NCBI GenBank assembly: GCA_004296805.1
Contig: SCVR01000175.1
Span: 1 to 56,999, forward strand
Length of the DNA stretch: 56,999 bases
Origin: Dehalococcoidia bacterium
Lineage (GTDB): Bacteria > Chloroflexota > Dehalococcoidia > UBA2979
Reading direction: 5' to 3'
The translations under genes and the position numbers were made by a program. Below the pieces are notes generated by a model, which ran no database searches, had not been told where the DNA came from, and was given only the letters and a program-made list of their open reading frames with translations. Shown here in pieces: positions 1-36,220 of this stretch (positions are counted from its first letter, which is position 1; each line of letters starts with the position of its first letter).

Positions 1-385
1 GCAGATGTCGAACTTCCTGTACCTGAGCCTGATCGTGGGTGTGACGGGGCTGGCGTTCGGGACCTCGGGGCCGGCGGCGAACAACGCGGCGATCGAGCTG
101 GCGCCGGACAAGATCGCGGCGATCACGGGGTTGCGCGGGATGTTCCGGACGCTGGGCGGGACGCTGGGTACGGCGGTGGTGGTGCTGGTGGCGTCCCGGG
201 CGTCCTCGGAGGCGTCGGGGTTGCAGACGGCGTTCCTGGGGCTGGCGTTCGTGAACGTGGTGACGATCGGGCTGGTGTTCGGGATTTCGGACAAGGTGGG
301 CGCGCGCGAGGCGGTGACGCTGGCGGCGAATCGCGCGGCGGCGGAGGCTCGTCTGGAGTCGGAGGCAGCGAAGGGCGCGCCGTAA
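1..385 (+). CDS. MFS transporter, C-terminal fragment (5' end lies outside the window)
   Basis: ORF 5..385 is in an open frame from the window edge. It is hydrophobic and TM-rich (LSLIVGVTGLAFG..., GTLGTAVVVLVAS) with a charged tail, typical of the last helices of an MFS protein. Confidence 0.55.
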   Translation, partial: QMSNFLYLSLIVGVTGLAFGTSGPAANNAAIELAPDKIAAITGLRGMFRTLGGTLGTAVVVLVASRASSEASGLQTAFLGLAFVNVVTIGLVFGISDKVGAREAVTLAANRAAAEARLESEAAKGAP

Positions 386-407
386 AGGGACTGCGGTTGG
401 GCCTCGG

Positions 408-896
408 CTAGTCGTTGCCGAGGGGGTGCGTGGTGGGGGCGTCGGCGCGGTGGCCCTTTTCGACGGAGCGGCCCTGTTTGGCCTCGAGGCGCGCGAGGGC
501 GCGGCCTTTGTCGGGGGTCGGGTCAGGGCGGACGCCGTAGGCCTCGCGGCCTTCGTGGTCCTCTGGCAGGTGTTCGGTGATGGGAAGACCTTCCTCATCG
601 CAGAAGAGCAGTCAGTGGCAGTACTTCCAGCGCTGCATCTCTTCGCAGGGGCAGATCCAGAACTTCTTTTCGATCTCCGCCTGCTTGTCCTCGAAGAACA
701 TGCAGGGGCAGAGGGGCTTGCCGAGTTCGTCGGCGTTTTTGGCGAGGCCGATGACGAGGAATTCGGTGATTTCGCGCTGCGGGTGGAGGTGGGTGCCGGA
801 CTTTTCGGCGAAGTTCTCGACGAACTTCCACATCTTCGCCATGGTCTCGGGCTTCGCGACGGCGCGGTCGGCGTCGGAGGGCTGATCGAGGGTCAT
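408..896 (-). CDS. Ferredoxin:thioredoxin reductase catalytic-subunit-like protein, probable selenoprotein (UGA at 612..614 read as Sec)
   Basis: ORF-track entry 612..896 ends ...LCPCMFFEDKQAEIEKKFWICPCEEMQRWKYCH at TGA. The same frame has no further stop for 67 codons until TAG at 408..410 and continues LLFCDEEGLPITEH.... The spacing matches CPC-X16-CPC-X8-CH[C] exactly, with TGA at the last Cys position. Third codon positions stay G/C-rich after the TGA. GGGAG lies 5 nt upstream of the ATG at 896. Confidence 0.65.
579..599 (-). promoter_or_regulatory. Candidate bacterial SECIS hairpin
   Basis: The mRNA reads GAUGAGGAAGGUCUUCCCAUC, starting 13 nt after the UGA. It forms an 8 bp stem with one bulged A on the 5' side and a GGUC apical tetraloop. 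This is the same architecture as the E. coli fdhF minimal SECIS as I recall it (bulged U, GGUC loop), shifted by one codon. Confidence 0.5.
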
Positions 897-993
897 CGCG
901 GCTCCCGTGCAGGCGGTTCGGATTCAGTGTGGGGCCGGGTGGCGGGGGTCGCAACCGGGGGCCGGGGGGTGCTTCGGGCGCTAGGATTGCGGC

Positions 994-1090
994 GGGAGTG
1001 GATGGCGTCCGGTGATGTCCTCGATCTTCAAAATCGGTGTGGGGTCGCGTTGCGGTCCCAGGTGGGTTCGACACCCACGCACTCCCGCCA
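994..1090 (+). tRNA. selC: tRNA-Sec (anticodon UCA)
   Basis: Hand-folded. The acceptor GGGAGUG(G) pairs with CACUCCC, followed by discriminator G and an encoded CCA. The D-stem is 6 bp (GGCGUC/GAUGUC) with a CGGU loop. The anticodon loop is CUUCAAA (UCA at 1028..1030). The extra arm is 9 bp (1040..1060). The T-arm is GUGGG-UUCGACA-CCCAC. The overall layout closely parallels E. coli selC. The 8th acceptor pair would be a G/G mismatch. Confidence 0.85.
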
Positions 1091-1575: not shown

Positions 1576-1773
1576 CTAGCGCTTGATGGCGTCGGAGGCT
1601 TTGCCGACGGCGTCTTTGGCGCCGCCGATGGCCTGCTGGGCCTTGCCCTTTGCCTGCTGCGCGTTGCCACGCTGTTCGAGACCTTCGTTGCCGGTGGCCT
1701 TACCGGCGGCTTCGCGGGCGGCGCCCGCAGCCTCGTTGCCCTTGCCCATGACCTTGTCGCGCTTACCTGACAT
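1576..1773 (-). CDS. CsbD-family general stress protein
   Basis: MSGKRDKVMGKGNEAAGAAREAAGKATGNEGLEQRGNAQQAKGKAQQAIGGAKDAVGKASDAIKR shows the typical CsbD composition and length. The internal ATG at 1773 is preceded by AGGAG. The longer 1576..1839 ORF start is unlikely. Confidence 0.8.
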   Translation of the reverse strand: MSGKRDKVMGKGNEAAGAAREAAGKATGNEGLEQRGNAQQAKGKAQQAIGGAKDAVGKASDAIKR

Positions 1774-1947
1774 CGATATCGCTCCTGGTTCTGACGCCAC
1801 GGCGGTGCCGGGGCTGGTCGTTTCGTCTCGTGGCTCCATGCTGTCATCGGGAGCGTCGCAATCTCGTCGTGGATCGGGCGTGGGTGCATCACTGCCGTTG
1901 CATTCGGGCAGGTGAGGCGGGCGCGAGCCGGGGGGAGGCCTCGAGGG

Positions 1948-3231
1948 CTACTGGATCCGGCGGACGGGGGTCCAGGTGAGCATGAAGGCGAGGAAGCAGA
2001 TGGTGGCGGCGACCATGAAGGCGCCGATGCCTTTCTGGGCGCCCCAGGCGGAGATGGCGAAGGCCATGGGGAATGAGCCGATGGCCTGGATGCCGCTGGT
2101 CATCTGGTTGACGGCCATGACGCGGCCTCGCATCTCGTTGCGGGTGACCTGGTGGAGCAGGGTGCTCTGCAGGGCGGTGGCAACGGAGTGGAAGATGCCG
2201 CCGGTGGCGAGGATGGCGAGTGAGAGGACGTAGGTGGACGAGGTGGAGAAGCCGATGAGGATGACGGCATAGGCGAGGTAGCAGCCGATCATGAGCCAGC
2301 CTCGATGTCGCGCGCTTCCGAGGTAGGCGAGGGAGAAGAGTCCGAGGAGTGAGCCCCAGCCCATCATGGAGGAGAGCATCCCGAAGCCGGCGTTACCTCG
2401 ATGGAGGACTTCCTCGGAGACGATCTTGAGGAAGGGGATGTAGGGGTAGATCAGGAGCGAGGGGATCATCGTGATGATGAGGAGGCCGAGGATCCGCTTG
2501 TCCGCCCAGGAGTAGGCGAAGCCCTGTCCGATCATGCGCCACGGGGAGACCGTGGTGACGCGGACCTGTCGGGTGGTGTGACTGATGCGCAGCGTGGCGA
2601 TGGTGGCAGCAACCTGGAGCGCCACGAGCATGACGAGGGCGGACGCGACGCCCCACGCGGCCATCATGATCCCGAAGCCCGACGGCCCGAGGACGCGCGA
2701 GACGTTCTGGACCATGGAGTTCACGGCGACGGCGTTCGGCAACGTCTCGTCCGTGGTGACGTCGTAGACGAAGGCCTGACGTGCGGGTTGGTTGATGGAC
2801 TGCGCGAGCCCGCCACCGAAGGCGATGAGGTAGACGTGCCAGACGTGCGCGAGGTCGAGCAGGACGAGCGCAGCGAGGCTCGCGGCCATGGTGGCATCGA
2901 GGAGGGTGGAGGCGACGATGATGCGGCGGCGAGGGAAGCGATCCGAGAGGTAGCCGCCGTAGGGGGCGATGAGCGTGCCGACACCGCCTCGGAAGGCGGC
3001 GACGGCGCCGAGTTGCACGGCGGAGCCGGTCATCTCGTAGACGAGGGCGAAGAGGGCGAGTTGCTTGGCCCATTGCGCGAAGCCGGCGGCGAGGGTGGAG
3101 AGCGTGAGGTAGCGGAAGTCGCGCAGTCTGAACGAGATGAAGATTTCGCCCGTGGAGGCTCGCGCCCGCTGCTGTGGCGGTTGCGTTTGAGGCGCGTGGG
3201 ATCCCGACTCAGGTAGGCGGCCTGTTGCCAT
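1948..3231 (-). CDS. MFS transporter
   Basis: 427 aa with about 12 predicted hydrophobic segments. It has an MFS loop motif (GGYLSDRFPRRRII). Confidence 0.8.
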   Translation of the reverse strand: MATGRLPESGSHAPQTQPPQQRARASTGEIFISFRLRDFRYLTLSTLAAGFAQWAKQLALFALVYEMTGSAVQLGAVAAFRGGVGTLIAPYGGYLSDRFPRRRIIVASTLLDATMAASLAALVLLDLAHVWHVYLIAFGGGLAQSINQPARQAFVYDVTTDETLPNAVAVNSMVQNVSRVLGPSGFGIMMAAWGVASALVMLVALQVAATIATLRISHTTRQVRVTTVSPWRMIGQGFAYSWADKRILGLLIITMIPSLLIYPYIPFLKIVSEEVLHRGNAGFGMLSSMMGWGSLLGLFSLAYLGSARHRGWLMIGCYLAYAVILIGFSTSSTYVLSLAILATGGIFHSVATALQSTLLHQVTRNEMRGRVMAVNQMTSGIQAIGSFPMAFAISAWGAQKGIGAFMVAATICFLAFMLTWTPVRRIQ

Positions 3232-18009: not shown

Positions 18010-19206
18010 ATGGGAATGATCATCAACACGAACATCGCCGCGCTGAACGCGCAGCGAAACCTGGGTGCCACCAGCGCCCAGATGGGCAAGACGCTTGAGA
18101 AGCTCTCCAGCGGCCTGCGCATCAACCGCGCGGCGGACGACGCTGCCGGCCTGGTGATTTCGGAGAAGATGCGGTCGCAGATCCGCGGCATGCAGCAGGG
18201 TATGCGGAACGCCCAGAACGGCGTTTCGATGCTGCAGACCGGTGAAGGCGCGCTGAACGAGGTGCACAACATCCTCGGCCGCGTGCGTGAGCTGGCCGTG
18301 CAGGCCGGCAACACCACGCTCTCCTCGTCCGACCGCGACGCGATCGGTGAAGAGATGCTCGCCCTCCGCTCGGAGATCGACAACATCGCAACCCGCACGC
18401 GTTTCAACGGCCAGAGCCTCCTGAACGGGTCGCTCGCGGTGACGTTGGACTCCGCGAACTCGACCGCCGACAACGTGACGTACGCCAACGGTGGCGCGAC
18501 GACCTCGGTGTCTTCGGTCAGCGTTGCGGACGCGCAGGCTGGCGAGACGTACACGTTCTCTGCGGCCGGTGCGGTCCTGACCCTGACGCACGATGACGGC
18601 AACGGCTACGTGCGCACGGAGACGGCGACGGTCCAGGACATGGGCGCGAGCGGCTCGCAGGCGGTCACGTTCGAGGAGTTGGGCGTCACGTTGAACCTCT
18701 CGCACGACGCGGTCGCTGCGAACCACACCGGTGCGAACCTCGCGAACGCGTTCGCGGCGACCACGGTGGTCACCTCGGGCAGCGGCAACGCGACGTTCCG
18801 CGTGGGCGCTGAAGTCGGCGACGACATCTCGCTCGCGTTCTCGGACATGCGTTCGAGCGCTCTGGGCAACGCTTCCAAGCTGGACACCCTGATCGCGGAC
18901 AACGCTGCGGTGTCGACGACCGCGAAGGCGGACACGCTGCTCGCCTCCGTGGACGCGGCCATCGACCAGGTGTCGACCTTCCGCGCGAAGATCGGTGCCC
19001 GTCAGAACCAGCTCGACGTGGCGACGAACTCCCTCGGCGTCTCGATCGAAAACCTGTCGGCGTCGGAGTCGCGCATCCGCGACGCGGACGTCGCGGAACT
19101 GTCCAGCCAGATGATCACGAAGCAGATCATCCAGCAGGCCGGTGTGGCCGTCCTCGCCCAGGCGAACTCGGCCCCGCAGGCTGTCCTGTCTCTGCTCCGC
19201 GGCTAG
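18010..19206 (+). CDS. fliC: Flagellin (copy 1)
   Basis: MIINTNIAALNAQRNL...LSSGLRINRAADDAAGL...SRIRDADVA...QAGVAVLAQANSAPQAVLSLLRG shows canonical N- and C-terminal flagellin domains. Confidence 0.95.
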   Translation: MGMIINTNIAALNAQRNLGATSAQMGKTLEKLSSGLRINRAADDAAGLVISEKMRSQIRGMQQGMRNAQNGVSMLQTGEGALNEVHNILGRVRELAVQAGNTTLSSSDRDAIGEEMLALRSEIDNIATRTRFNGQSLLNGSLAVTLDSANSTADNVTYANGGATTSVSSVSVADAQAGETYTFSAAGAVLTLTHDDGNGYVRTETATVQDMGASGSQAVTFEELGVTLNLSHDAVAANHTGANLANAFAATTVVTSGSGNATFRVGAEVGDDISLAFSDMRSSALGNASKLDTLIADNAAVSTTAKADTLLASVDAAIDQVSTFRAKIGARQNQLDVATNSLGVSIENLSASESRIRDADVAELSSQMITKQIIQQAGVAVLAQANSAPQAVLSLLRG

Positions 19207-19233
19207 TCCGCCACTGTCACCGGACGGCAGTGA

Positions 19234-19261
19234 GGAGCCCCCACCGCAAGGTGAGGGCTCC
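19234..19261 (+). terminator. Intrinsic terminator after flagellin 1
   Basis: GGAGCCC-C-CACC-GCAA-GGTG-A-GGGCTCC hairpin followed by TTCGTGTT. Confidence 0.6.
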
Positions 19262-19361
19262 TTCGTGTTGCCGTCAGGTGGGGTTTTCCCCGATGGGCGG
19301 TCCCCCGAGGGTTGACCACACTGGTCGCGAAGGTCCCTCCGGGCCCAGCGAGGAGTGTGCG

Positions 19362-20645
19362 ATGGTCGCCGTGGAGAAGCCGCAGACCGAGGTCGTGCGG
19401 GAGACCGTGCACCAGCAGTACGAGTCCCTGCCATATCCGGCGCGCGATCCGGAGCAGGAACTGGAAATGCTCCGACAGCCGACGGTGTGCGAGTTGCCTC
19501 GCGTGAACGCACTGCTGGGCGGTGGGCACCGGGTGTTCGACTCCACGTTCCGGGTCCTGGACGCGGGTTGCGGTACGGGTGACGCGACGGTGTTCCTGGC
19601 GCATCAGTTGCGCGGGACCGGAGCGCGGATCGTGGCGCTGGACCTGTCTGGTGCCTCGTTGGATATCGCGCGGCGTCGCCTGCGGGCGCGCGGGCTTGAG
19701 GACGCGGTGGACTTCGTGCAGGCGCCGATCGAAGAGGCGCCGTCCCTGGGGCTGGGCGAGTTTGACTTCATCTCGTCGTCCGGGGTGCTGCACCACCTGC
19801 CCTCGCCTGAGGCGGGGATGCGAGCGCTGCGCGACATGCTGAAGCCAGACGGCGCCATCGCGGTGATGGTGTATGCGAAGTATGGCCGTGAGCCGGTGTA
19901 CCTCATGCAGTCGTTGCTGCGGATGCTGGCCCCGGCGGAGTTTGGCGAGGAGCGGCGGTTGCGGATCTTGAGGCGGGCGCTGCAGGCGCTGCCACAGGAG
20001 AACCGCGGAGTACGCGGTTTGCTGGACACGCCGCTGTTCCATTCCGAGATCGCGCGGTCAGACGCCGGTGCGTATGACCTGCTGCTCCACTCGCAGGATC
20101 GGCCGTATACGGTGCCAGAGATATACGACTGGCTGGACGGTGCAGGGCTGCGACTCCTGGACTGGGGTGTGCCTCGGGCGTACCGGCCGGAGACGTATTG
20201 GCCAGGTTCCGACCTGGGACATCTGGATGTGGCCCAGCGGGCGGCCGTGGCGGAGTTGATGCACGGGCGGATGGCGAAGCATCAGTTCTATGCGGCACAC
20301 GCGGAGGTCTCGATGCCGGTGCAGCCGCAGGCGGACGAGCGCGGGGCGGTGCCGGTGTGGACCGCGTGGGGGTTCGACGCGCAGCTGGGACCAGCGCTGG
20401 CGGGGGCGGGGGCACGGCTGAAGTTCACGATGGGCGAGGAGCGTGAGGTAACCGTGAACGGTGACGCGCTGAACCGCCGGCTGCTGGGCGACGTGGATGG
20501 GCAGCGGACGGTGGGGGCGATCCTCGATTCGGCGCGGGGGGCGTTCCCGGCCCAGACGGCGGACCAGATCCGACGTCGGTGGGTGGAGCTGTGCGACTCG
20601 ATGCGGGAGATCGCAGCGCTGGTGCTATACGCGCCGGCGGCATAG
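19362..20645 (+). CDS. Class I SAM-dependent methyltransferase with a C-terminal extension (possible PqqD/RRE-like tail)
   Basis: SAM motif I VLDAGCGTGDATVFLA, plus DFISSSGVLHHL and LKPDGAIAVMVY. The C-terminal ~60 aa (LNRRLLGDVDGQRTVGAILDSARGAF...IRRRWVELCDSMREIAALVLY) resemble PqqD-like peptide-binding domains by eye. ATG 19362 follows GAGGAG. Confidence 0.8.
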   Translation: MVAVEKPQTEVVRETVHQQYESLPYPARDPEQELEMLRQPTVCELPRVNALLGGGHRVFDSTFRVLDAGCGTGDATVFLAHQLRGTGARIVALDLSGASLDIARRRLRARGLEDAVDFVQAPIEEAPSLGLGEFDFISSSGVLHHLPSPEAGMRALRDMLKPDGAIAVMVYAKYGREPVYLMQSLLRMLAPAEFGEERRLRILRRALQALPQENRGVRGLLDTPLFHSEIARSDAGAYDLLLHSQDRPYTVPEIYDWLDGAGLRLLDWGVPRAYRPETYWPGSDLGHLDVAQRAAVAELMHGRMAKHQFYAAHAEVSMPVQPQADERGAVPVWTAWGFDAQLGPALAGAGARLKFTMGEEREVTVNGDALNRRLLGDVDGQRTVGAILDSARGAFPAQTADQIRRRWVELCDSMREIAALVLYAPAA

Positions 20646-20692
20646 CGTCCGGACACCTTCAGGAAGGCGTCAGGGCCGCCGAAGATGGCGGT

Positions 20693-20932
20693 ATGACGTT
20701 GTCCACCCCCTGCGATGCCTGCGGTACGCCGCTGCGCCGTGACGTAGTCACGCTGCGGTTCATGACGAGCCCGATCTCGTATGGGACCGCTTCGCAGACC
20801 CGTGCGGTGCCGGACCTTAAGCAGGAGTACCTGGTTTGCCCGGGGTGTGCCTCGTACGTACAGGCGTGCGTGGCGGTGCTCGAAGGGCGTGTGGGCGCGG
20901 AGCCGTTCAGCGTGCGGGAGATGGCGTCATGA
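20693..20932 (+). CDS. Small CxxC...CxxC (zinc-ribbon-like) protein, paralog A
   Basis: 79 aa with C7-x2-C10 and C49-x2-C52. Its stop overlaps the next start (ATGA). Confidence 0.55.
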   Translation: MTLSTPCDACGTPLRRDVVTLRFMTSPISYGTASQTRAVPDLKQEYLVCPGCASYVQACVAVLEGRVGAEPFSVREMAS

Positions 20933-21174
20933 GCCCCTCGTTCTCCGCGTGTGACCTGTGCCTCGCTACGCTGGGCCCGCAGGTGACGGAGGTCCAGATT
21001 TCGCCTGCGCGCATGGTGCAGTTGACCGAAGAGGGCAGCATTGCGCACCAGGCGACGGGGCTGCGCAGCCTGCGGCTCTGCACGTCGTGCGGGGACTACC
21101 TCATAGCCGGTTTCGAACGCCTGCTGAACGCGTATGGGCGAGTAGTCCCGGAGCAGCAGCGGATGGCCGGGTAG
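20929..21174 (+). CDS. Small CxxC...CxxC (zinc-ribbon-like) protein, paralog B
   Basis: 81 aa with C8-x2-C11 and C51-x2-C54. It has the same layout as paralog A (CDxC...L...V.....L.C..C..Y) and is translationally coupled to it. Confidence 0.55.
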   Translation: MSPSFSACDLCLATLGPQVTEVQISPARMVQLTEEGSIAHQATGLRSLRLCTSCGDYLIAGFERLLNAYGRVVPEQQRMAG

Positions 21175-21184
21175 CCTTCGAGGG

Positions 21185-21862
21185 CTACTGGAACCGTTCG
21201 AGCCAGCGCACGGCGCGTTCGACGGACTTCGGCTCTTCCTTGTAGATGCCGTGCCCGATGCCCGGGAAGATCTCGAGTTCCGAGTTGGCGATCAGGCGGG
21301 ACATGATGACGGAGCCCCCCGGAGGCGTCTGCGGGTCCGCGCTGCCGACGAGGATGAGCGTGGGCGCGGTGACCTTCTTCAGTTCTTCGTCCATGCGGTA
21401 AGCGGCGACGGCGCGGTTGGTCGCCGCCATGGGGCCGTTGCCGGCAGCCTCGAATTCCTCGGCCTTCTTCAGCCATCCGGCGGCGAGTGCACCGCCGACG
21501 CGGCTGGAGGTGGAGAACAGGATCATGCCCTCCACACGGTGGGGGAAGTCGATGGCGAACCGCTGCGTGATCGCGCCGCCCATCGAGTGTCCGGCGATGA
21601 TCGCCCTGGGGATGCCGAGCGCCTCCATGAGGGCATCGAGGTCTTTGGCCCAGGTGGCGAGGGAGACGGGGCCGGGCTCGCTGCTGCTCTCGCCCATCCC
21701 TCGGACGGAGTAGACGAGGTGGCGGAAGCCCTTGAAGGCGGGGGTGGTTTCGGCCCACGTTTCGAGACGGGAGCCGATGCCGTGGACGAAGACGATGGTC
21801 TTGGTGCCTTCGCCGCGGAGTTCGTACTGGTGACTGATCCCATTGGCGGTGATGAAGGGCAT
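21185..21862 (-). CDS. Alpha/beta-fold hydrolase
   Basis: IVFVHGIGSRLETW plus the nucleophile elbow GHSMGG and a C-terminal GIGHGI. Confidence 0.85.
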   Translation of the reverse strand: MPFITANGISHQYELRGEGTKTIVFVHGIGSRLETWAETTPAFKGFRHLVYSVRGMGESSSEPGPVSLATWAKDLDALMEALGIPRAIIAGHSMGGAITQRFAIDFPHRVEGMILFSTSSRVGGALAAGWLKKAEEFEAAGNGPMAATNRAVAAYRMDEELKKVTAPTLILVGSADPQTPPGGSVIMSRLIANSELEIFPGIGHGIYKEEPKSVERAVRWLERFQ

Positions 21863-21969
21863 CGCGGCCTCCCCGGCAGCGTTCGGTGTGGCGGGCGGAG
21901 TATACGCATGGTGCGGTGGCGGATGGGCCGAATCTGCGTGCTAGGATTCCGGGGCTCAGGAGGCGCCCC

Positions 21970-22464
21970 GTGGCGGAGATCGACTCGCGCGAGTTCCGGA
22001 ACTGGGGTGGGCACTTCGCCACCGGTGTGACGGTCCTGACCGTCCATGTGGGCAACACCGTGCGAGGGATGACGGCGAACGCCTTCTGCTCGCTCTCCCT
22101 ACACCCGCCACTCGTCCTGGTCTGCATCCAGCACGGGGTGTCCATGCATCCGTTCTTCGAGGTGGCGGAGTCGTTCGGGGTGAACGTGCTGGCCGATGAC
22201 CAGAAGTCGCTTTCCGACCTGTTCGCGCAGCACGGTGAACACGCCGAGCCGATGAGCGGTGCTCCCTACCGCCTGGGGAACCTTGGGTCCCCGATCCTCG
22301 AGGGCGTGCTGGGGTGGGCGGAGTGCCGTGTGGTGGAGCGGTACGCCGGCGGCGACCACATGATTGTGGTGGGCCAGGTGGAGGAGATGGCAACTGCGCG
22401 TCCAGACGCAGGCCCGTTGCTGTTCTATGCGGGCAAGTACCGCACCGTTGGAGAGACGCTGTAG
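21970..22464 (+). CDS. Flavin reductase-like (FMN-binding split-barrel) protein
   Basis: FRNWGGHFATGVTVLTV...GMTANAFCSLSLHPPLVLVCI. I chose GTG 21970 as the start because AGGAGG sits 6 nt upstream. The 21886 start would crowd the divergent gene. Confidence 0.8.
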   Translation: MAEIDSREFRNWGGHFATGVTVLTVHVGNTVRGMTANAFCSLSLHPPLVLVCIQHGVSMHPFFEVAESFGVNVLADDQKSLSDLFAQHGEHAEPMSGAPYRLGNLGSPILEGVLGWAECRVVERYAGGDHMIVVGQVEEMATARPDAGPLLFYAGKYRTVGETL

Positions 22465-22591
22465 TCGACGCCCCGCCGACCCCGGGTGTGAGGGTGTCGA
22501 AGTCCTCGGGCGCGGGATGTCCCCAATACGGAGCAGGGTGTGGCAGCCGATAGGCTGACTTCGCGGCGGTCATCCGTCGCGAGGAGCGCAC

Positions 22592-23674
22592 GTGGACGCA
22601 GTGTCCCCCACCTCGACCTCGCCCGCGCCGAGCGTCTCACCATATGAGGGGGTGCGCAGCGCGCCGGCCCCGGTCACGCAGGCCTCGTTTGCCGCGATCT
22701 TCGAGAAGCACCTTGCGAGCGCCCGCTCCGAGATCGAAGGCGTGCGTGCGGAGATCGCGTCGCTCCGTGATGGTGGAGCGCGCAACCTGGCGATGTCGCC
22801 GCGTGCCTCCGAGTCCTCGAAGCCGATGTCGGTAGCGGACGTGGTGGCACGACTGAAGACGATGTCGACGGGGGACAGCGCGGACCCGTACGGGTGGCGC
22901 CAGATGGCGCGCGGCACGGGCGAGCAGGTGATCGGCCCGGGATACGGCGCGATCTTCGAGCGGCAGATCCAGCAGGAGTCCGGGTTCGCGCCGGACGTGG
23001 TGTTCGGCCTGCGGAAGTCCTCGGCTGGCGCGGAGGGCATCGCGCAGTTGATGCCGCAGTACTACCCGAACGTGAACCGCGCGGACCCGCAGGCTGCGCT
23101 CATCGCCGGCGCGAAGTCCATGGACCACTACCTGGGAGCATGGGACGGCGACGTGCGCAAGGCGCTCGCCTCGTACAACGCGGGGCTGGGGAAGGTGCGC
23201 CAGGTGGTGGCATCGCACGGCGAGAAGTGGGAGAGCGCACTGCCGTTGGAGACACGCCAGTACCTGTCCGCGATCGTGGGGAACATGAGCCCGGTCTTTT
23301 CACGACCCTCGAGCATGGCGGCGGTGTTCGGCGGCCGGGGGCCGGGCGGGGTGCTAACGATGCCCGTAGACCGCACAGGGAGCCGGCCTGCGGCGGGAGG
23401 CCTCGACCTCTTTGCGCATGCGGGTAGCGCGGTGCGAGCGCCAGCCGACGGCACGGTACGCATCGCCACTGGTGACGAGGGCCCGGTGGTCACGATCGAC
23501 CACGGGAATGGCTGGCAGAGCACGCTGCGCGGGGTCGATGGCGTGTTGCCCTCGGACGGTGCGACGGTGCGTCGGGGCGAAGTCGTGGGTGCGGTGGACA
23601 CGGGCGCACGGGTTGCGCTGGGGCTGACGCTGAACGGCCGGGCAGTGGACCCGATCCGGTATCTGCTGGGATAG
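22592..23674 (+). CDS. Lytic transglycosylase (SLT) domain fused to a degenerate LytM/M23 domain; no signal peptide
   Basis: SLT motifs are IQQESGF, AEGIAQLMP and ASYNAGLG. The C-terminal LDLFAHAGSAVRAPADGTV...IDHGNGWQSTLRG...VRRGEVVGAVD...VALGLTLNGRAVDP follows M23 topology, but HLHFE is replaced by ALGLTL. Confidence 0.8.
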   Translation: MDAVSPTSTSPAPSVSPYEGVRSAPAPVTQASFAAIFEKHLASARSEIEGVRAEIASLRDGGARNLAMSPRASESSKPMSVADVVARLKTMSTGDSADPYGWRQMARGTGEQVIGPGYGAIFERQIQQESGFAPDVVFGLRKSSAGAEGIAQLMPQYYPNVNRADPQAALIAGAKSMDHYLGAWDGDVRKALASYNAGLGKVRQVVASHGEKWESALPLETRQYLSAIVGNMSPVFSRPSSMAAVFGGRGPGGVLTMPVDRTGSRPAAGGLDLFAHAGSAVRAPADGTVRIATGDEGPVVTIDHGNGWQSTLRGVDGVLPSDGATVRRGEVVGAVDTGARVALGLTLNGRAVDPIRYLLG

Positions 23675-23735
23675 GCGAGGCGGTTCCCACCTCGATTCCC
23701 GGTGCCGATGGTGGATGCTACGATCCTCGTCCCGT

Positions 23736-23812
23736 GGTGGGTGTGGCCTAGCGGTTAGGGCGTCAGGTTGTGGCCCTGAAGATCGGGGGTTCAAATCCCC
23801 TCACCCACCCCA
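23736..23812 (+). tRNA. tRNA-His (anticodon GUG)
   Basis: Hand-folded cloverleaf. It has an encoded G-1 opposite C73, acceptor GUGGGUG/CACCCAC and D-arm GCCU-AGCGGUUA-GGGC. The anticodon arm is UCAGG-UUGUGGC-CCUGA, the T-arm is GGGGG-UUCAAAU-CCCCU, and CCA is encoded. Confidence 0.95.
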
Positions 23813-23931
23813 TGGAGACCTCTGCCCGCCGCGCTCACTCGACCGATCCAGTCAACGACTGAATCCGGCCGGGGGCGCGGCGGTGCTATATTGGCGCTCG
23901 AAAGCCCCCCACTCCATCGAAGGACACAGAC

Positions 23932-25080
23932 GTGCGGCGCGGACTCCTCGCCCTCCTCGCCGTGCTTGCGCTCACCCCGCTCGCGGCCGCGTGCAACGAC
24001 AAGAAGGACAGCGGCGCCGGGGACGTGGCCCTGACAGACCGCTGGCTGCGCGCGAACGAAGACCCCTCCGCGGACATCACGATCTTCGAGGCGAAGCTGC
24101 CGGCGAACCTCGTCGAGTTGTTGAACCCAGGATCGTCCGCTGACGCGAAGGACCAGTTGCAGTTCCCCGTGCATCCGAACGGGAAGCTAATTGGTTCGTA
24201 TGTGATCCGACGGCCAGAGGTGGGGAACCTCGTCGGACTGGTGTACGACGTTGCGGAGCCGACCGGGGACGTGACGAAGAAGGTGCAAGAGCAGTTGGAC
24301 GCGCGGCCATGGCAGGTGGTCGGCGCGCAGGCTGACGCCTCTGGCACCTTGCTCCGGTTCCAGACGACGACGGGCGGGGAGTTGCGCGGGCAGGCACTGG
24401 TGAACCAGCGTCCGGGCACCTCGACGTACACCCTGGTGGTGGAGCGTGATGGGAAGCAGACGACGTTGACCGTGGCACGGTCGAGCGCGATCCCGGAGAT
24501 TGCGGCCTCGCTCGCGGACGACCTGACGGTGAAGCGCGTGGACGCCGGGCCGGCGAAGACCGCAGGACTGAAGGAAGGCGACAAGATCGTCAAGGTCGGT
24601 GCGACGGCTGTGACGGACCGTAAGAGCCTGGCAGCGGCACAGCGCGCCCTCTCCGCGGAGAAGCCAGCGAGCACGAGCATCACGTACCTCCTGCTGGTGA
24701 CGCCGCCCGTGGAGGAGGACCAGCGGACGTTCTCCGAACCGGCGACCCTGGCGCTACCGGAGAAGTTCCCGTTGAAGGCGTTCTTCGATGGCATGGTGGT
24801 GATCGATTACCAGTGGGTCCAGGAGCCGGGGAACTCGGGCTTCAAGGCGACGGCGATCACGAAGGACGGTTCCACCTCGACGGCGGGCAAGTTGAAAGAG
24901 GCCCTGCAGAAGGGCGGCTGGCAAGTGGTGCAGGACGTGCCACAGGGCGGTGCGACCCAGATGCAGTTCCAGCACTCGGATGGCCGCGCCGGGGTGGCGC
25001 AGATCGGGCCGTTCGAGGGGGACTCGGCGTACAGCCAGGTGGCCTTCACGGTGCAGTCCGGCCAGGGTGGGGGGAGATAG
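23932..25080 (+). CDS. Lipoprotein with a PDZ-like domain
   Basis: Signal and lipobox MRRGLLALLAVLALTPLAAACN. PDZ-like segment VKRVDAGPAKTAGLKEGDKIVKVGATAV. Confidence 0.7.
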   Translation: MRRGLLALLAVLALTPLAAACNDKKDSGAGDVALTDRWLRANEDPSADITIFEAKLPANLVELLNPGSSADAKDQLQFPVHPNGKLIGSYVIRRPEVGNLVGLVYDVAEPTGDVTKKVQEQLDARPWQVVGAQADASGTLLRFQTTTGGELRGQALVNQRPGTSTYTLVVERDGKQTTLTVARSSAIPEIAASLADDLTVKRVDAGPAKTAGLKEGDKIVKVGATAVTDRKSLAAAQRALSAEKPASTSITYLLLVTPPVEEDQRTFSEPATLALPEKFPLKAFFDGMVVIDYQWVQEPGNSGFKATAITKDGSTSTAGKLKEALQKGGWQVVQDVPQGGATQMQFQHSDGRAGVAQIGPFEGDSAYSQVAFTVQSGQGGGR

Positions 25081-25149
25081 CCCGCCCATCGCGGGGTGTC
25101 CCTGATCCCGAAGCGAGTTTCCCTGCGGAATGATCTCCCGTGTCCGGAG

Positions 25150-25169
25150 CCGCGGCATGGATGCCGTGG
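25150..25169 (+). promoter_or_regulatory. 5'-leader hairpin presenting GGA (CsrA-type site candidate), flagellin 2
   Basis: CCGCGGCA-UGGA-UGCCGUGG, an 8 bp stem with one G-U pair. It shares the GGCAUGGAUGCC core with 17965..17980. The SD GGGAGG lies at 25177..25182. Confidence 0.4.
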
Positions 25170-25186
25170 CCGGAGCGGGAGGTCGT

Positions 25187-26386
25187 ATGTCGCTTCAGAT
25201 CAACACGAACGTCGCCGCGCTGAACGCGCAGCGGAACCTCGCAGGCACGAACCGTCGCCTGGGTGGCATCTTCGAGAAGCTGTCGAGCGGCATGCGGATC
25301 AACCGCGCCGCGGACGACGCGGCCGGACTGGCCATCTCCGAGAAGATGCGGGCCCAGATCCGCGGCATGCAGCAGGGCCAGCGCAACGCGCAGGACGGCG
25401 TGTCCATGCTGCAGACCACGGAAGGCGCACTGAACGAGGTGCACAACACCTTGCAGCGTATCCGTGAGCTCTCCGTGGAAGCGGGCAACACGACGCTTTC
25501 GGCGTCTGACCGTCAGGCCATCGGTGAGGAAATGCTCGCCCTCCGGACCGAGATCGACAACATCGGCAACCGGACGCGCTTCAACGGCCAGCAACTGCTG
25601 ACCGGTGCCCTGGCCGTGACGCTGGACTCCGCGAACTCGACGGCGGACACGGTGACGTACGCCAACGGTGGCGCGACGACTTCGGTGTCCTCGATCGACG
25701 TGTCGCGCGCAGACGCCGGTGAGACGTACACGTTCTCGGCGGCCGGCGCGGTCCTCACCCTGACCCACGACGACGGCAACGGCTACGTGCGGACGGAGAC
25801 GGCGACGGTCCAGGCGATGGGCGCCAGCGGCTCGCAGTCCGTGATCTTCGAAGAGCTCGGCGTGACACTGAACCTCGCGCACGACGCGAACGCGGCAAAC
25901 CACACGGGTGCGAACCTCGCGAACGCGCTCGACACGACGACCATCGTGACGGGTGGCAGCGGGAACGCGACGTTCCGCGTGGGCGCGGAAGTCGGTGACG
26001 ACATCTCGGTGGCGTTCCAGGACATGCGGTCGAGTGCACTGGGCAACGCCTCGAAATTGGACACGCTGATCCCGGACAACGATGCGGTGTCGACCGGGGC
26101 GAAGGCGGACACGCTGCTCGCTTCGGTGGACGCGGCGATGGCGCAGGTCTCGTTGTTCCGCGCGAAGTTGGGCGCCGTGCAGAACCAGATGGACACGGCG
26201 GTGAACAGTCTGGCCGTGTCGGTGGAGAACCTGTCGGCGTCTGAGTCTCGTATCCGCGACGCGGACATTGCCGAGGTGTCCAGCAAGATGATCTCGCAGC
26301 AGATCATGCAGCAGGCCGGTGTAGCGGTCCTGGCGCAAGCGAACACGGCCCCGCAGGCGGTGCTGTCGCTGCTCCGCGGCGGGTAG
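25187..26386 (+). CDS. fliC: Flagellin (copy 2)
   Basis: MSLQINTNVAALNAQRNL...RINRAADDAAGL...SRIRDADIAEVSS...AQANTAPQAVLSLLRGG. I chose ATG 25187 as the start. Confidence 0.95.
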   Translation: MSLQINTNVAALNAQRNLAGTNRRLGGIFEKLSSGMRINRAADDAAGLAISEKMRAQIRGMQQGQRNAQDGVSMLQTTEGALNEVHNTLQRIRELSVEAGNTTLSASDRQAIGEEMLALRTEIDNIGNRTRFNGQQLLTGALAVTLDSANSTADTVTYANGGATTSVSSIDVSRADAGETYTFSAAGAVLTLTHDDGNGYVRTETATVQAMGASGSQSVIFEELGVTLNLAHDANAANHTGANLANALDTTTIVTGGSGNATFRVGAEVGDDISVAFQDMRSSALGNASKLDTLIPDNDAVSTGAKADTLLASVDAAMAQVSLFRAKLGAVQNQMDTAVNSLAVSVENLSASESRIRDADIAEVSSKMISQQIMQQAGVAVLAQANTAPQAVLSLLRGG

Positions 26387-26408
26387 CCCCCGACCGATGT
26401 CCCCCCTC

Positions 26409-26438
26409 CCGGGCGGCCCGTGATCGCGGGCCGCCCGG
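26409..26438 (+). terminator. GC-rich hairpin after flagellin 2
   Basis: CCGGGCGGCCCG-TGATCG-CGGGCCGCCCGG, a 12 bp perfect stem with no clear U-tract. Confidence 0.5.
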
Positions 26439-26553
26439 TGTGATCTGCGGGTAATTCCCGACGCTGCGCGGCAGGGCACCGGACGATGATTCGGACGGGA
26501 TCGCCTCGGCTGTTGCGGCAGCGCACGGCGCGGCGTTTCAGCGAGGACGGTGC

Positions 26554-26895
26554 GTGATGCCCGACCTGCGGATTGAGCGCGGCCCGACTCCGCTGGGCCC
26601 GGCGGCAGTCAACGCCGAGCAACGGCGGAGCGGCGGCGACGGATCTCGGCGGGACCGTCGGGACGGTGAGCCGCACTCGGCGCCGGGCGTGGAGGAGTTG
26701 TCGGTGGCGCTGCATGAAGAGGGGCGAAAGCACCTCGTCGCGCGGCTGGTGACGGACGACTCGGGCGAGACGCGGGTGCGGATTGTGGACACGGAGCGAG
26801 ACGAGACGGTGGCCGTGCTGACACCTGACGAGTTGCGCGCGCTGGCGGCGCAGACGGGGCTCCCGCCCGGCCTGCTGCTGCAGGCGCGGTCTTAG
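26554..26895 (+). CDS. flaG: FlaG-family flagellar protein
   Basis: RVRIVDTERDETVAVLTPDELRALA resembles the FlaG C-terminal motif. It sits directly upstream of fliD. Confidence 0.65.
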   Translation: MMPDLRIERGPTPLGPAAVNAEQRRSGGDGSRRDRRDGEPHSAPGVEELSVALHEEGRKHLVARLVTDDSGETRVRIVDTERDETVAVLTPDELRALAAQTGLPPGLLLQARS

Positions 26896-26905
26896 AGGGC
26901 CTCGG

Positions 26906-29293
26906 ATGGCGATCTCGGGCAGCAGTTCGAGTGGACGGATCACGTTCGGGGGCCTGGCGTCAGGCCTCGACACGAACTCGATCATCGAGCAGTTGATGTC
27001 CGTGGCGCAGCGTCCGATCACGCTGGCGCAAAGGCAGCGCAACACGATTGAGACGAAGTCAGCGGCGATCGGGAAAGTCGCCTCGGCGCTGTCTGCGCTT
27101 CAGACGAGGGTGCAGACGCTCAACACGACGAACACCTACCGGACGCGGGTCGCGAACGTCCTTGCGGCAACGGCGGATGCGAACAAGGTCAGCGTGAGCG
27201 CGGCCCCGGGCGCGTCCGTGGGCGGGTTCACCCTCAACGTGACGGCGCTGGCAACGGCGACGAAGGCGACCAGCGCGCAGGCTGCCGGGTCCGCGGTGGA
27301 CGTGAACGCGCCGCTGGACCAGTCCGGGATGAGCCCCACCGTCTCCGCCGGGACGTTCTCGATCAACGGGACGGCGTTCACCATCGACCCTGCGACGGCC
27401 GAGGCGCTCACGAGCGCAGCGAGCATTGGTGCCACGACGACGGCGGCGCAGACACTGTCCACGGCAGGCCTCGACATCACGCCGGCGGCGTCCGGGACGT
27501 TCACGGTGAACGGCGAGACGATCACGTGGGCGGACAGTGACACGATCAACGACGTGATCGGCTACATCAACGCCTCGGCGGCGGGTGTCACGGCGTCGTT
27601 CGACACCAACACGAAGCAGTTCACGCTGACGCATGACACGCTGGGCACCGGCCAGGTGATCACGATCGCCGACACGTCCGGGAACTTCCTGGAGGCGATG
27701 AAGCTGGTCAATGGTGGTGGCGGGGTCATCGGCACGGCGACCGCCGGCACCGACATGCCGTCGCTCAGCGACCTCGTGGCGGACATCAATGGGGCAGCGC
27801 TCGGCGTGACGGCGACGGTGGAGAACGACGCGTGGGCGCGCCCGAACCTGCTGCAGATCGCCGGCGCCTCTCCGGTGCAACTCGGATCCGCGGCTGACAC
27901 CAGCAACTTCCTCCGCGCGGCGAGCCTGCTGTCGTCCCCGACGGGGAACACCCGGATCAGCCAGCGTGGCCTCGGCGGGCTCGATATCACATCCGACCTG
28001 ACCGACTCGCGGCTGTCGACCGCGCTGACGCAGGCGACGGGGTCGTTCAAGGTGAACGGGGTTTCGTTCGACTACGACTCCGCGGTGGACTCGATCAGCA
28101 ACATCATTTCGCGCATCAACTCGTCGTCTGCGGGGGTCACGGCCAGTTACGACCCGTTCGCGGACGGCCTCACGTTGACGAACAACGCCACTGGCGCGAT
28201 CGCGGTGGGCGTGGAAAACGTCGCGGGGAACTTCCTGACGGCGGTCGGGATCATCGGGGCGACGCAAAGCATCGGTGGGAACGCGGCATACTCGATCGAC
28301 GGCGGCGCGACGCGGTACTCGACCTCGAACGTCATCGACGACGCTCTGACCGGTGTGACGATCACGGTGCGCGACACGACGTCGCAGGCGGTCAAGGTGG
28401 ACATCTCCGTCCAGACGCAGAACGTGGTGGATGCGGTGACGCAGTTCGTGTCCTCGTATAACGACGCGAACAAGGTGATGGGCGACCTCACGAAGTATGA
28501 CCCGACGGGGAAGGCGAACGGCATCCTGTTCGGGGACGGCACGGTGCGCCAGATCCAGACGAACATCCGGCGACCGGTGACCAGCGCGGTGGCCGGGATG
28601 ACCGGAAGCATCCGATCGCTGTCGGACGTGGGCATCTCGTTCGGCGCGGTGGGGTCGGCGGTCGGGTCCACCGACACGCTGGTGTTCGACTCGGCGAAGT
28701 TGATCGCGGCGCTGAAGAGCCAGCCGGAGGCGGTGGCGAAGCTGTTCACGGCGTTCAGCCCGGCTGCGTCGCTGGTCGCGGCGGGGACCGGCTCGATCGC
28801 CTCGCTGTCGGGGACGCCGACGCAGGCGACGAAGTCGGGTTCGTACAGCGTGGTGTCTACGGGGACGGGGGCACTGACGGCGACGTTCACACCGAACGAC
28901 GGATCGGCGGCGGTGACCACGAGCGGGAACATCACGGCGGGCGGTACGAACACCTCGTTGATCCCGGGGGTGACGCTGACCGGGAAGCCGGTCCTCGTGG
29001 CCGGCACGGACACCATCGCGATCACGGCGACCCAGCAGGGCTTCGCCAAGACGCTGTTCGAGTACATCGGCGTGCTGACGAAGACGAACGGGATGCTCAC
29101 CGCACGGACCGATGAGATGTCCACGACGATGAAGGACATCGACGAGCAGATCACGAAGATGCAGGCACGCCTGGACGTGCGCGAGCAGCAACTGGTGAAG
29201 AAGTTCTCCCAGATGGAGTCCACGATTGCGCGGATGCAGAGCCAGCAGCAGGCGCTGACAAAGATGCAGGCGCAGACGGGCGGGAACGGTTAA
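26906..29293 (+). CDS. fliD: Flagellar filament cap protein FliD (hook-associated protein 2), unusually long (795 aa)
   Basis: N-terminus ITFGGLASGLDTNSIIEQLMSVAQRPITLAQRQRNTIETK and a C-terminal coiled region ...QLVKKFSQMESTIARMQSQQQAL. Confidence 0.9.
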   Translation: MAISGSSSSGRITFGGLASGLDTNSIIEQLMSVAQRPITLAQRQRNTIETKSAAIGKVASALSALQTRVQTLNTTNTYRTRVANVLAATADANKVSVSAAPGASVGGFTLNVTALATATKATSAQAAGSAVDVNAPLDQSGMSPTVSAGTFSINGTAFTIDPATAEALTSAASIGATTTAAQTLSTAGLDITPAASGTFTVNGETITWADSDTINDVIGYINASAAGVTASFDTNTKQFTLTHDTLGTGQVITIADTSGNFLEAMKLVNGGGGVIGTATAGTDMPSLSDLVADINGAALGVTATVENDAWARPNLLQIAGASPVQLGSAADTSNFLRAASLLSSPTGNTRISQRGLGGLDITSDLTDSRLSTALTQATGSFKVNGVSFDYDSAVDSISNIISRINSSSAGVTASYDPFADGLTLTNNATGAIAVGVENVAGNFLTAVGIIGATQSIGGNAAYSIDGGATRYSTSNVIDDALTGVTITVRDTTSQAVKVDISVQTQNVVDAVTQFVSSYNDANKVMGDLTKYDPTGKANGILFGDGTVRQIQTNIRRPVTSAVAGMTGSIRSLSDVGISFGAVGSAVGSTDTLVFDSAKLIAALKSQPEAVAKLFTAFSPAASLVAAGTGSIASLSGTPTQATKSGSYSVVSTGTGALTATFTPNDGSAAVTTSGNITAGGTNTSLIPGVTLTGKPVLVAGTDTIAITATQQGFAKTLFEYIGVLTKTNGMLTARTDEMSTTMKDIDEQITKMQARLDVREQQLVKKFSQMESTIARMQSQQQALTKMQAQTGGNG

Positions 29294-29429
29294 CGGGCGC
29301 AGATTGGTGGCGCGTGTCAGGGTTTCCCCGACGTGTAAGCGTGCTCCGGAGCCGATGGTCTCTCTGACGGGCAGCCCACACCGACAGGCGTGGCGCAGCC
29401 GTCTGAGACTCGGACGAGCCGGAGGCACG

Positions 29430-29852
29430 ATGAACCAGGCCGCGCACGACACGTACCTGCGCATCCAGACGGAGACGGCCTCTCCGGGCCAGTTGATCAT
29501 CATGCTGTACGACGCCCTGCTGCGGAGCCTGGGCAAGGCGGAGATGGCGATCACCGCGAACGACATCGAGAGCGCGCACGCGTCGCTGCTGCGGAGCCAG
29601 GACGTGGTGCTGGAGTTGATCGCGAGCCTGGACATGACGGCGGAGGGCGAGGCGGGCGTGATGGCACGGAAGTTGGCCCCGCTCTACGAGTACATCTACC
29701 GCCGGACGCTGGACGCGAGCCTGCGCAAGGACGTGGCCCCGGTGCAGGAGGCGGTGCGCCTGATCACGCCGCTGCGCGCGTCCTGGCAGTCCGCCCTGGA
29801 GTCGCTGGCATACGAGGCGGGTGGCGCAGCCACGGGGGCCCTCCGTGGGTAG
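29430..29852 (+). CDS. fliS: Flagellin-specific chaperone FliS
   Basis: YLRIQTETASPGQLIIMLYDALLRSL...IESAHASLLRSQDVVLELIASLD...LAPLYEYIYRRT. ATG 29430 follows GGAGG. Confidence 0.9.
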   Translation: MNQAAHDTYLRIQTETASPGQLIIMLYDALLRSLGKAEMAITANDIESAHASLLRSQDVVLELIASLDMTAEGEAGVMARKLAPLYEYIYRRTLDASLRKDVAPVQEAVRLITPLRASWQSALESLAYEAGGAATGALRG

Positions 29853-30249
29853 CGCGGCGCTCCAGTTCGAGCTGCTGCGGGAGATCTTCGATCTCGCCCG
29901 TGCCCAGCGCGCGAGCCTGGAGGCGGACGACATCGACCGCGTGATGGATCTGATGTCCGAGCGGGAGACGCTGCTGGAGCGGCTGACGCGTCTTGCGGAG
30001 GCGCACGCGGAGTTCCCGGAGAACGTGGTGGTGTTCCCGCGCGCCGTGGACGTGATGCAGCAGGACGCGATCGCCCTCGACACGGTGATCCGCGGGATCC
30101 TGGAGCACGACCGCCAGAACGAGGCGTTGCTGCAGGAGAAGATGGCCCAGATCCGCGAGGAGTTGCCTCGGGTACGCCAGGCGTTCCGTGCGGCGAACGC
30201 ATACCGCTCGCCTGACGTCGCACCGGCATACGTGAACCGCCAGTCGTAG
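29845..30249 (+). CDS. Putative flagellar export chaperone (FlgN/FliT-like helical protein)
   Basis: All-helical ~134 aa with a heptad-like LQFELLREIFDLARAQRASLEADDIDRVMDLMSERETLLERL. The assignment rests on position after fliS. The GTG 29845 start overlaps the fliS stop. Family assignment is tentative. Confidence 0.45.
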   Translation: MGSAALQFELLREIFDLARAQRASLEADDIDRVMDLMSERETLLERLTRLAEAHAEFPENVVVFPRAVDVMQQDAIALDTVIRGILEHDRQNEALLQEKMAQIREELPRVRQAFRAANAYRSPDVAPAYVNRQS

Positions 30250-30260
30250 GCGAGATCAGG

Positions 30261-30992: not shown

Positions 30993-31062
30993 CGCGACCC
31001 CGCGCCCCCTCCGGACGGACCGGTGAGGCGTAGGATGGTCGAGGTCGAAGGAGCAGTCAGCG

Positions 31063-31329: not shown

Positions 31330-31355
31330 GCGCTCGATCCTCACGAAGCCTGTCC

Positions 31356-31380
31356 AGCCCCCCGCCAGAAGCGGGGGGCT
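31356..31380 (+). terminator. Intrinsic terminator after flgM
   Basis: AGCCCCCCGC-CAGAA-GCGGGGGGCT, a 10 bp perfect stem, followed by CTTCGTGT. Confidence 0.6.
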
Positions 31381-33093: not shown

Positions 33094-33121
33094 TGCGCGC
33101 GCAGCAGACTCGGAGGAACTG

Positions 33122-36208: not shown

Positions 36209-36220
36209 GCGAGACGCGCG

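Follow-up and report, generated by a model that had tools for sequence, protein, structure and literature searches.

Selenoproteins related to the catalytic subunit of ferredoxin:thioredoxin reductase (FTR) were reported in 2008 as a new family, represented by two Global Ocean Sampling (GOS) metagenome sequences, one of which carried two selenocysteine (Sec) residues, at both redox-active Cys positions (Zhang and Gladyshev 2008, PMC2398784). FTR selenoproteins, with the motif CxU, appear again in reviews from 2022 and 2026, the latter of which links the family to the NCBIfam model NF041072, with two Sec residues. Here, we analyze a 56,999-nucleotide (nt) stretch of DNA from a Dehalococcoidia bacterium (GenBank assembly GCA_004296805.1, contig SCVR01000175.1, positions 1 to 56,999; hereafter, the window), in which the minus-strand gene at 408..896 very probably encodes an FTR-type selenoprotein with a Cys-Sec redox pair, carrying a selenocysteine insertion sequence (SECIS) hairpin after its UGA and adjoining selC, the gene for the Sec tRNA (tRNA-Sec). 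The original prediction of this gene implied that FTR-like proteins were absent from the described bacterial selenoproteins, which does not hold, because the family was published in 2008, features in reviews and has an NCBIfam model. The window protein instead adds a new member to this 2008 family, within which it may represent a subfamily that lacks curation.

In the FTR structures of Dai et al., Cys55, Cys74, Cys76 and Cys85 reportedly bind the [4Fe-4S] cluster, and Cys57 and Cys87 form the redox-active disulfide. In the mechanism described for FTR, once the first electron has arrived, one of the active-site sulfurs attacks thioredoxin and the other becomes a fifth ligand of a cluster iron (PMC3838966). 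The variable subunit of the enzyme (FTRV) is reportedly exclusive to oxygenic phototrophs (PMC9025218), and the Dehalococcoidia have been placed among the most selenoprotein-rich bacteria (PMC13326102).

Results

The features at the locus are as follows.

408..896, minus strand: putative selenoprotein coding sequence (FeThRed_B), 162 codons plus a TAG stop at 408..410; FTR catalytic-subunit homolog
702..710, minus strand: first CPC, C63-P64-C65, the counterparts of Cys55, which ligates the cluster, and Cys57, the redox Cys at the surface; columns invariant
645..653, minus strand: second CPC, C82-P83-C84, equivalent to the cluster ligands Cys74 and Cys76; columns invariant
615..620, minus strand: C93-H94 of the CH[U] motif, C93 being equivalent to the cluster ligand Cys85; columns invariant
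612..614, minus strand: in-frame TGA, predicted U95, aligned with Cys87 (CHC motif) of Synechocystis FTR, 1dj7_A
411..611, minus strand: the 67 codons after the Sec codon, including a subfamily-specific C-terminal extension, GLPITEHLPEDHEGREAYG..DP.PDKGRAL
579..599, minus strand: putative bacterial SECIS hairpin GAUG-A-GGAA-GGUC-UUCC-CAUC, based on folds, pair counts, codon constraint and the Sec/Cys contrast
994..1090, plus strand: selC, tRNA-Sec with anticodon UCA (ARAGORN, TCA; Rfam RF01852)

As originally described, the open reading frame (ORF) at 612..896 on the minus strand encodes 94 amino acids (aa), ends ...CPC-MFFEDKQAEIEKKFWI-CPC-EEMQRWKY-CH-TGA (the C-terminal end before the TGA being ...PLCPCMFFEDKQAEIEKKFWICPCEEMQRWKYCH), and is followed by 67 further open codons, LLFCDEEGLPITEH..., closing at the TAG at 408..410. 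The same-frame translation downstream of the TGA is LLFCDEEGLPITEHLPEDHEGREAYGVRPDPTPDKGRALARLEAKQGRSVEKGHRADAPTTHPLGND, such that the decoded product comprises 162 residues, with a read-through peptide around the Sec site of ...WKYCH-U-LLFCDEEGLPITEHLPEDHEGR. Both the read-through product (86.7 bits, E = 1.3e-24) and the 94-aa part alone (74.4 bits) scored well above the cut-off of 22 for Pfam PF02943 (FeThRed_B). The match to the catalytic chain of Synechocystis FTR (PDB 1dj7_A, in which chain numbering equals literature numbering; E = 3.5e-23) leaves the CPC-X16-CPC-X8-CHC spacing intact, aligns C63/C65, C82/C84 and C93 with Cys55/57, Cys74/76 and Cys85, and puts the TGA on Cys87, the final Cys of the motif, just where it had been predicted to fall. 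The six-residue FTR motif, comprising four cluster ligands and the redox pair, is therefore complete, with its last position encoded by TGA. The codon for C65 is TGC (702..704) and U95 alone is encoded by TGA, making the window protein a single-Sec form. By homology to the solved FTR structures, it is predicted to hold a [4Fe-4S] cluster.

An AlphaFold model of a Cys homolog (P0003, 71% identical), which stands in here for the window protein, has a pLDDT of 92.3, and its best PDB matches are the FTR catalytic chains 7c3f, 1dj7, 2pu9 and 7bzk (target-normalized TM of 0.75-0.78; root-mean-square deviation [rmsd] of about 1 Å across 86-89 columns), with the ferredoxin-dependent disulfide reductase (FDR) structures 4tpu and 7pwe ranking behind them in the fold search. 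The C-terminal extension, roughly 60 residues that lie outside the Pfam FTR model, is modeled with high confidence in this homolog.

Protein searches returned relatives of two classes. Full-length relatives (~150-160 aa, 57-74% identical; annotated as Dehalococcoidia and Nitrospirota) have Cys at the TGA column and continue CHC-LLFVxExGLPITEYLPEDHEGRE.YG..DP.PDKGRAL, matching the window read-through frame, and members of the short class (94-106 residues, 89-96% identical) all end at KYCH. At the DNA level, the short-form relatives, which are metagenome orthologs, have TGA at the site in six of six loci, with an open and conserved frame downstream. That homology carries on across the TGA, as first proposed, is also apparent from Cys homologs of ~70% identity, which continue straight through. 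A scan of GTDB, with one genome per species and the pattern M-x3-K-Y-C-H-TGA-[L/M]-L-F, found this in-frame TGA, with 52-88 conserved codons behind it, in at least 119 species (119 of the 120 matches listed are this gene), a count that speaks to recurrence and not to invariance, given that the pattern required the TGA. The matches listed come nearly all from metagenome-assembled genomes (MAGs) of Dehalococcoidia or other Chloroflexota, plus one Candidatus Entotheonellaceae MAG; one match, in an Acholeplasmataceae MAG, was discarded as a chance hit. Judging by these genomes, the TGA form of the FTR gene appears common in Dehalococcoidia.

Across 117 Sec forms, the amino acids at codons +12 to +30 after the TGA are invariant and their third positions are free (Thr: ACC 80, ACA 22, ACG 10; Leu: CTG 53, CTC 28, TTG 14; Pro: CCC 54, CCA 40, CCG 17). 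The whole 67-codon region shows the same protein-level conservation with free third positions in the 117 Sec forms and in 75 Cys forms alike, and this combination argues that the region downstream of the hairpin is translated. The orthologs, which carry either Cys or TGA at the site and conserve the downstream frame, support the read-through originally proposed.

Two further observations concern this region. At locus L082 (Dehalococcoidia MAG S18_105), the conserved frame is lost ~20 codons past the TGA, from ~4393 onward (...LPEGHEEGRRELCAPQ...), which suggests either a frameshift in the assembly or a copy in decay. Separately, across L007-L246, 70% of Sec forms have Cys at U+4 (U-L-L-F-C; window 600..602), a column at which Val stands in 93% of Cys forms. 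Another thiol at a distance of one helical turn from Sec might have chemical consequences. Two Cys forms, L130 and L236, also read LLFC, such that the U+4 Cys may be a clade trait and not linked to Sec. In a neighbor-joining tree of L007-L246, built on ~125 residues from a pattern-biased sample and without support values, Sec and Cys forms are interleaved, with at least 10 Sec/Cys switches by parsimony and large Sec clades of 51, 27 and 21 sequences. Such interleaving is the usual behavior of a Sec/Cys family.

The hairpin occupies the position claimed for it, 13 nt past the UGA, and is the predicted minimum-free-energy (MFE) structure of the region. Counting the U of the UGA as nt 1, its lower stem pairs nt 16-19 with 33-36 (the 5' base being the 13th nt after the UGA), A20 is bulged (window 595), the upper stem pairs nt 21-24 with 29-32, and the apical loop GGUC occupies nt 25-28 (window 587..590). 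The bacterial SECIS (bSECIS) model asks for 3-9 nt in the loop, 4-16 bp in the upper stem, a G within the first two loop positions, a UGA-to-loop distance of 16-37 nt and an MFE no higher than -7.5 kcal/mol (PMC13188914). The window hairpin fits this model, with its GGUC loop, 4-bp upper stem, 21-nt spacing and MFE of -8.1 kcal/mol over 27 nt (-10.0 over 45 nt), and in our own implementation of the constraints, 100 of 117 Sec forms fell within them vs 13 of 75 Cys forms. The latter, 75 distinct forms of the same subfamily, came from metagenomes, where they were collected with TGY substituted for TGA in the search pattern, and served as the control set.

Codon choice sets the two groups apart in precisely this segment. 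In Sec forms, codons +5 to +9 are near-fixed (GAT 52/56, GAG 69/70, GAA 86/89, GGT 107/117 and CTT 84/111), whereas Cys forms use mixed codons at the same positions (Gly: GGC 33, GGG 18, GGT 14; Leu: CTG 30, CTT 9, CTC 8), and elsewhere in the Sec forms themselves, Gly and Leu codons favor GGC and CTG, with GGT and CTT rare. Nucleotides 13-40 fold more stably in Sec forms than in Cys forms (-8.1 vs -5.6 kcal/mol; Mann-Whitney p = 6e-13 between sets of related sequences) despite a lower GC content (0.57 vs 0.64), and two flanking control segments showed no Sec-form stability advantage. The loop reads GGUC from nt 25 in 94 of the 117 Sec forms, and a further 9 have GGUCU; Cys forms lack a consistent loop.

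Pairing patterns point the same way. Among 86 distinct Sec segments, 84.7% of cells are paired, vs 24-59% in controls that slide the 3' partners by 1-3 columns, and cells in which both sides have changed number 52 in the named structure vs 4-14 in the slid controls. Compensatory changes occur at four pairs, 16-36, 18-34, 19-33 and 23-30 (for example, G19-C33 to C-G or U-G, U18-A34 to C-G, A23-U30 to C-G, and G16-C36 to A-U or U-A). In 74 Cys forms, these eight column pairs reach 43.4% pairing, and all seven inner pairs are kept in 59 of 86 Sec forms vs 0 of 74 Cys forms. The hairpin is hence retained in TGA-bearing orthologs, as the original prediction would have it, and these comparisons indicate that it is under selection solely in TGA-bearing forms.

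The adjacent tRNA-Sec gene was also correctly recognized at the outset. ARAGORN and Rfam RF01852 (69.1 bits vs a threshold of 47, E = 4e-12) both identify 994..1090 as selC, divergent from the FTR gene and separated from its ATG by a 97-nt spacer. The two genes adjoin in the window and in the close orthologous loci L001, L003, L005, L013 and L019, and lie ~2 kb apart in L046. We rejected this adjacency as a general feature, given that selC was within the fetched stretch in 7 of the 60 loci tested, mostly from the closest clade; it represents local synteny, and no general rule.

The genes around the orthologs provide some functional context. In L001 (4966..7441) and L003 (5007..7476), the ortholog is flanked by a convergent thioredoxin gene (109 aa) and adjoins a divergent Pyr_redox_2 flavoprotein gene (312-316 aa) that is thioredoxin-reductase-like, with a gene for a CsoR-like (Trns_repr_metal) repressor also at the locus. 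In L005 (4399..5270), only a thioredoxin gene is present, ~1.9 kb downstream of the ortholog. These neighbors support a role in a thioredoxin system; the window itself ends before the corresponding region.

The remainder of the window includes a large flagellar gene cluster (18010..43014); the FTR gene of the genome that harbors it groups with Dehalococcoidia. The other features are as follows.

1576..1839, minus strand: small Gly/Ala/Lys-rich ORF (KGKAQQAIGGAKDAVGKASDAIKR) between selC and the gene for a major facilitator superfamily (MFS) transporter, which may resemble CsbD-type stress proteins
1948..3231: MFS transporter gene
18010..19206 and 25130..26386: flagellin genes (two)
23737..23812, plus strand: tRNA-His (GTG), the only other tRNA in the window (ARAGORN, Rfam)
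26906..29293: FliD
31480..33093: FliF
33122..34165: FliG
34865..36208: FliI ATPase
37959..39494: FliK
40457..41740: FlgE, followed by a gene for a cyclic nucleotide monophosphate (cNMP)-binding/DUF2225 protein

The GC content of the window is 68.6%, and GC-rich bacteria normally favor TGA stops. TAG, TAA and TGA end 36, 12 and 8 of the 56 heuristic ORFs, respectively, and 18, 3 and 4 of the 25 Pfam-confirmed genes; the corresponding counts in L001, L003 and L005 are 8/2/4, 7/0/4 and 5/1/4. We speculate that this preference for TAG over TGA might be linked to heavy use of UGA for Sec. A second selenoprotein gene in the window was considered and dropped: a two-sided coding scan for in-frame TGA codons yielded only an antisense artifact at ~3510, the FTR gene itself falling just below the GC3 filter of that scan.

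Discussion

Our results suggest that the FTR-type gene is very probably decoded through its UGA as a selenoprotein. Were the TGA a true stop, the gene would encode a 94-residue truncated FTR-like protein, or be a decaying pseudogene with the downstream frame as a remnant. Public gene calls do give the 94-106 aa form, and TGA does end 4 of the 25 Pfam-confirmed window genes, but a remnant would have decayed, whereas the 52-88 downstream codons are open, conserved at the protein level and synonymously free in at least 119 species. A truncated product would also miss the redox residue equivalent to Cys87, and the selected hairpin and the tRNA-Sec gene would be left without explanation, such that we regard termination at this codon as extremely unlikely. 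More improbable still is that the TGA reflects a sequencing or assembly error for TGC or TGT, which is a general possibility for any metagenome-derived sequence, since 9 independent contigs, each below 5 kb in length, encode exactly this 94-aa product and TGA stands at the site in independent metagenomes and in the genomes of those species. Taken together, recurrence of the TGA and conservation downstream of it exclude, in practice, a true stop, a pseudogene and a sequencing error. Read-through might instead insert another residue, either because a near-cognate tRNA supplies Cys or Trp or because the lineage has reassigned UGA. Sec at residue 95 is, after all, deduced from sequence, and the unusual rarity of TGA stops, with TAG ending 18 of 25 Pfam-confirmed genes, is a possible hint of weak UGA termination. 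Yet, the FTR gene aside, no gene in the 57 kb shows coding signal flanking an in-frame TGA, which speaks against general reassignment; the site is the redox Cys column, the usual position of Sec/Cys exchange; the hairpin fits the SelB-type bSECIS model and resembles that of fdhF; and a dedicated tRNA-Sec gene is adjacent. With another residue at the site, neither the SelB-type hairpin nor the tRNA-Sec gene would be accounted for. We therefore consider insertion of a residue other than Sec very unlikely.

A different question is whether a Sec enzyme of FTR fold acts on thioredoxin at all, or is a ferredoxin-dependent disulfide reductase, similar to the FDRs, that serves another thiol protein or a small disulfide. 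The FDR structures 4tpu and 7pwe were matched by both sequence and fold, the ~60-residue C-terminal extension goes beyond the Pfam FTR model, outside oxygenic phototrophs a variable subunit is not to be expected (PMC9025218), and no thioredoxin gene is visible in the window, where the locus is cut at the edge. The true FTR chains are, however, far closer (E about 1e-23 vs 6e-9 for 4tpu), and a thioredoxin gene lies immediately downstream of the ortholog, with a thioredoxin-reductase-like gene upstream, in L001 and L003, and ~1.9 kb away in L005. A non-thioredoxin substrate thus seems unlikely.

Several points weigh against the selenoprotein interpretation itself. Incorporation of Sec at the UGA is predicted here from sequence, and the genes for the remaining Sec machinery, selA, selB and selD, were found neither in the window (Pfam profiles run on its 30 largest ORFs; tblastn with the Escherichia coli proteins) nor in ~250 related loci (tblastn with the same proteins). 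The count of at least 119 species derives from the TGA-requiring pattern. As for the hairpin, in the lone window sequence it is no more stable than dinucleotide shuffles (z of -0.27 to -0.83), and a single fold therefore proves nothing by itself. RNAalifold, applied to 86 distinct 45-nt Sec segments, did not recover it and returned an unrelated structure of -1.09 kcal/mol, which probably reflects a register that shifts among subclades. Over 380..1000, Rfam gave no SECIS family even at E up to 10; the permissive matches that did arise there (e.g., mir-1677 and RtT) were dismissed as chance. Further, the Sec and Cys sets are phylogenetically related and are not independent samples, so the p-values overstate the significance of the contrast between them.

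With family membership, the TGA position, downstream translation, hairpin selection and the presence of a tRNA-Sec gene established by these comparisons, a mechanism can be proposed, in which selenium insertion, the electron donor, the substrate and the Fe-Se chemistry are predicted. If recoding takes the usual bacterial route, SelB loaded with Sec-tRNA(Sec), the tRNA being supplied by the selC gene at 994..1090, would bind the GGUC-loop hairpin 13 nt past the UGA and deliver Sec. By homology to the solved FTR structures, C63, C82, C84 and C93 would hold the [4Fe-4S] cluster, and C65 and U95 would form a redox-active selenenylsulfide that replaces the Cys57-Cys87 disulfide. A first electron from ferredoxin would then open the C65-U95 bond. 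U95, at the Cys87 position, would bind a cluster iron as its fifth ligand, C65 would attack the thioredoxin disulfide, and a second electron would free reduced thioredoxin. The FTR-like enzyme with a Cys-Sec redox pair that was originally proposed is in keeping with PF02943 membership, with the TGA in at least 119 species and with selection on the hairpin in Sec forms only.

Comparison with known systems

The FDRs (Methanosarcina acetivorans 4TPU and the Desulfotalea glutaredoxin-FDR 7PWE) resemble the window protein in having an FTR-like Fe-S/disulfide domain and in belonging to non-photosynthetic anaerobes that lack a variable subunit. Their similarity to it is weaker, however (E = 6e-9 for 4TPU and 3e-3 for 7PWE), and their rubredoxin or glutaredoxin domains are absent from the window protein. 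Closer are the catalytic subunits of cyanobacterial and chloroplast FTR (FTRC; 1DJ7, 2PU9, 7BZK), with which it shares the CPC-X16-CPC-X8-CH[C/U] spacing, a core fold at ~1 Å rmsd over ~88 residues (as measured on the 71%-identical Cys homolog) and, presumably, the same chemistry of a [4Fe-4S] cluster with an adjacent redox pair. In contrast to FTRC, the window protein would have Sec at the Cys87 position, comes from a non-photosynthetic host and has a longer C-terminus outside the Pfam model.

For the recoding signal, the natural reference is the E. coli K-12 fdhF element, which we read from the genome as UGA-N11-GG-U-UGCA-GGUC-UGCA-CC. The fdhF-like design attributed to the window hairpin in the original prediction held in its main elements, namely the apical A-GGUC-U, a 4-bp upper stem with a single bulge directly below it, a lower stem and a location inside the coding sequence, but not in its details. 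The window bulge is A rather than U (in orthologs, some have C or G, or pair it away), and the module sits 3 nt, or one codon, farther from the UGA, placing the loop at nt 25-28 vs 22-25; unlike the fdhF SECIS, it has no Rfam match.

The catalogued FTR selenoproteins are the nearest relatives in kind. They belong to the same Pfam family, have Sec in place of a redox Cys in CxU with a bSECIS just past the UGA, and occur, as here, in uncultured and largely environmental bacteria. The only curated NCBIfam model for them, NF041072 (FtrB double-selenoprotein), nevertheless describes something different: the window protein has one Sec, with its first redox Cys encoded by TGC, and runs to 162 aa, including a conserved C-terminal extension, whereas the model is a 121-position profile. 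The window protein scores 53.1 bits against a cut-off of 160 and, on that score and its single Sec where two are required, does not belong to that equivalog. Because gene calls stop at 94-106 residues and NF041072 misses the single-Sec subfamily, many genomes that encode the protein probably have it annotated wrongly. It is possible, though on balance doubtful, that the single-Sec, C-terminally extended FTR of Dehalococcoidia constitutes a distinct and uncharacterized subfamily beyond the NCBIfam double-Sec model. It would be notable if the U95 selenolate transiently ligated the [4Fe-4S] cluster in an Fe-Se catalytic intermediate, if the conserved extension replaced the missing variable subunit, and if the family were among the most widespread selenoproteins of the class. 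Sec at a cluster-contacting position would be an attractive case for Fe-S/chalcogen chemistry.

Finally, the Cys-type FTR-like proteins (P0001-P0059, ~150-160 aa; Dehalococcoidia, Nitrospirota and others) are 57-74% identical to the window protein over the full length, including the extension, and differ from it in having TGY for TGA and in lacking both the conserved hairpin and the codon bias at +5 to +9. Selenoproteins normally exchange Sec and Cys at a redox Cys position, and the gene carries little weight as a discovery. Regardless, the 117 Sec and 75 Cys sequences form a clean, naturally occurring comparison from which a SECIS element within coding sequence can be defined.

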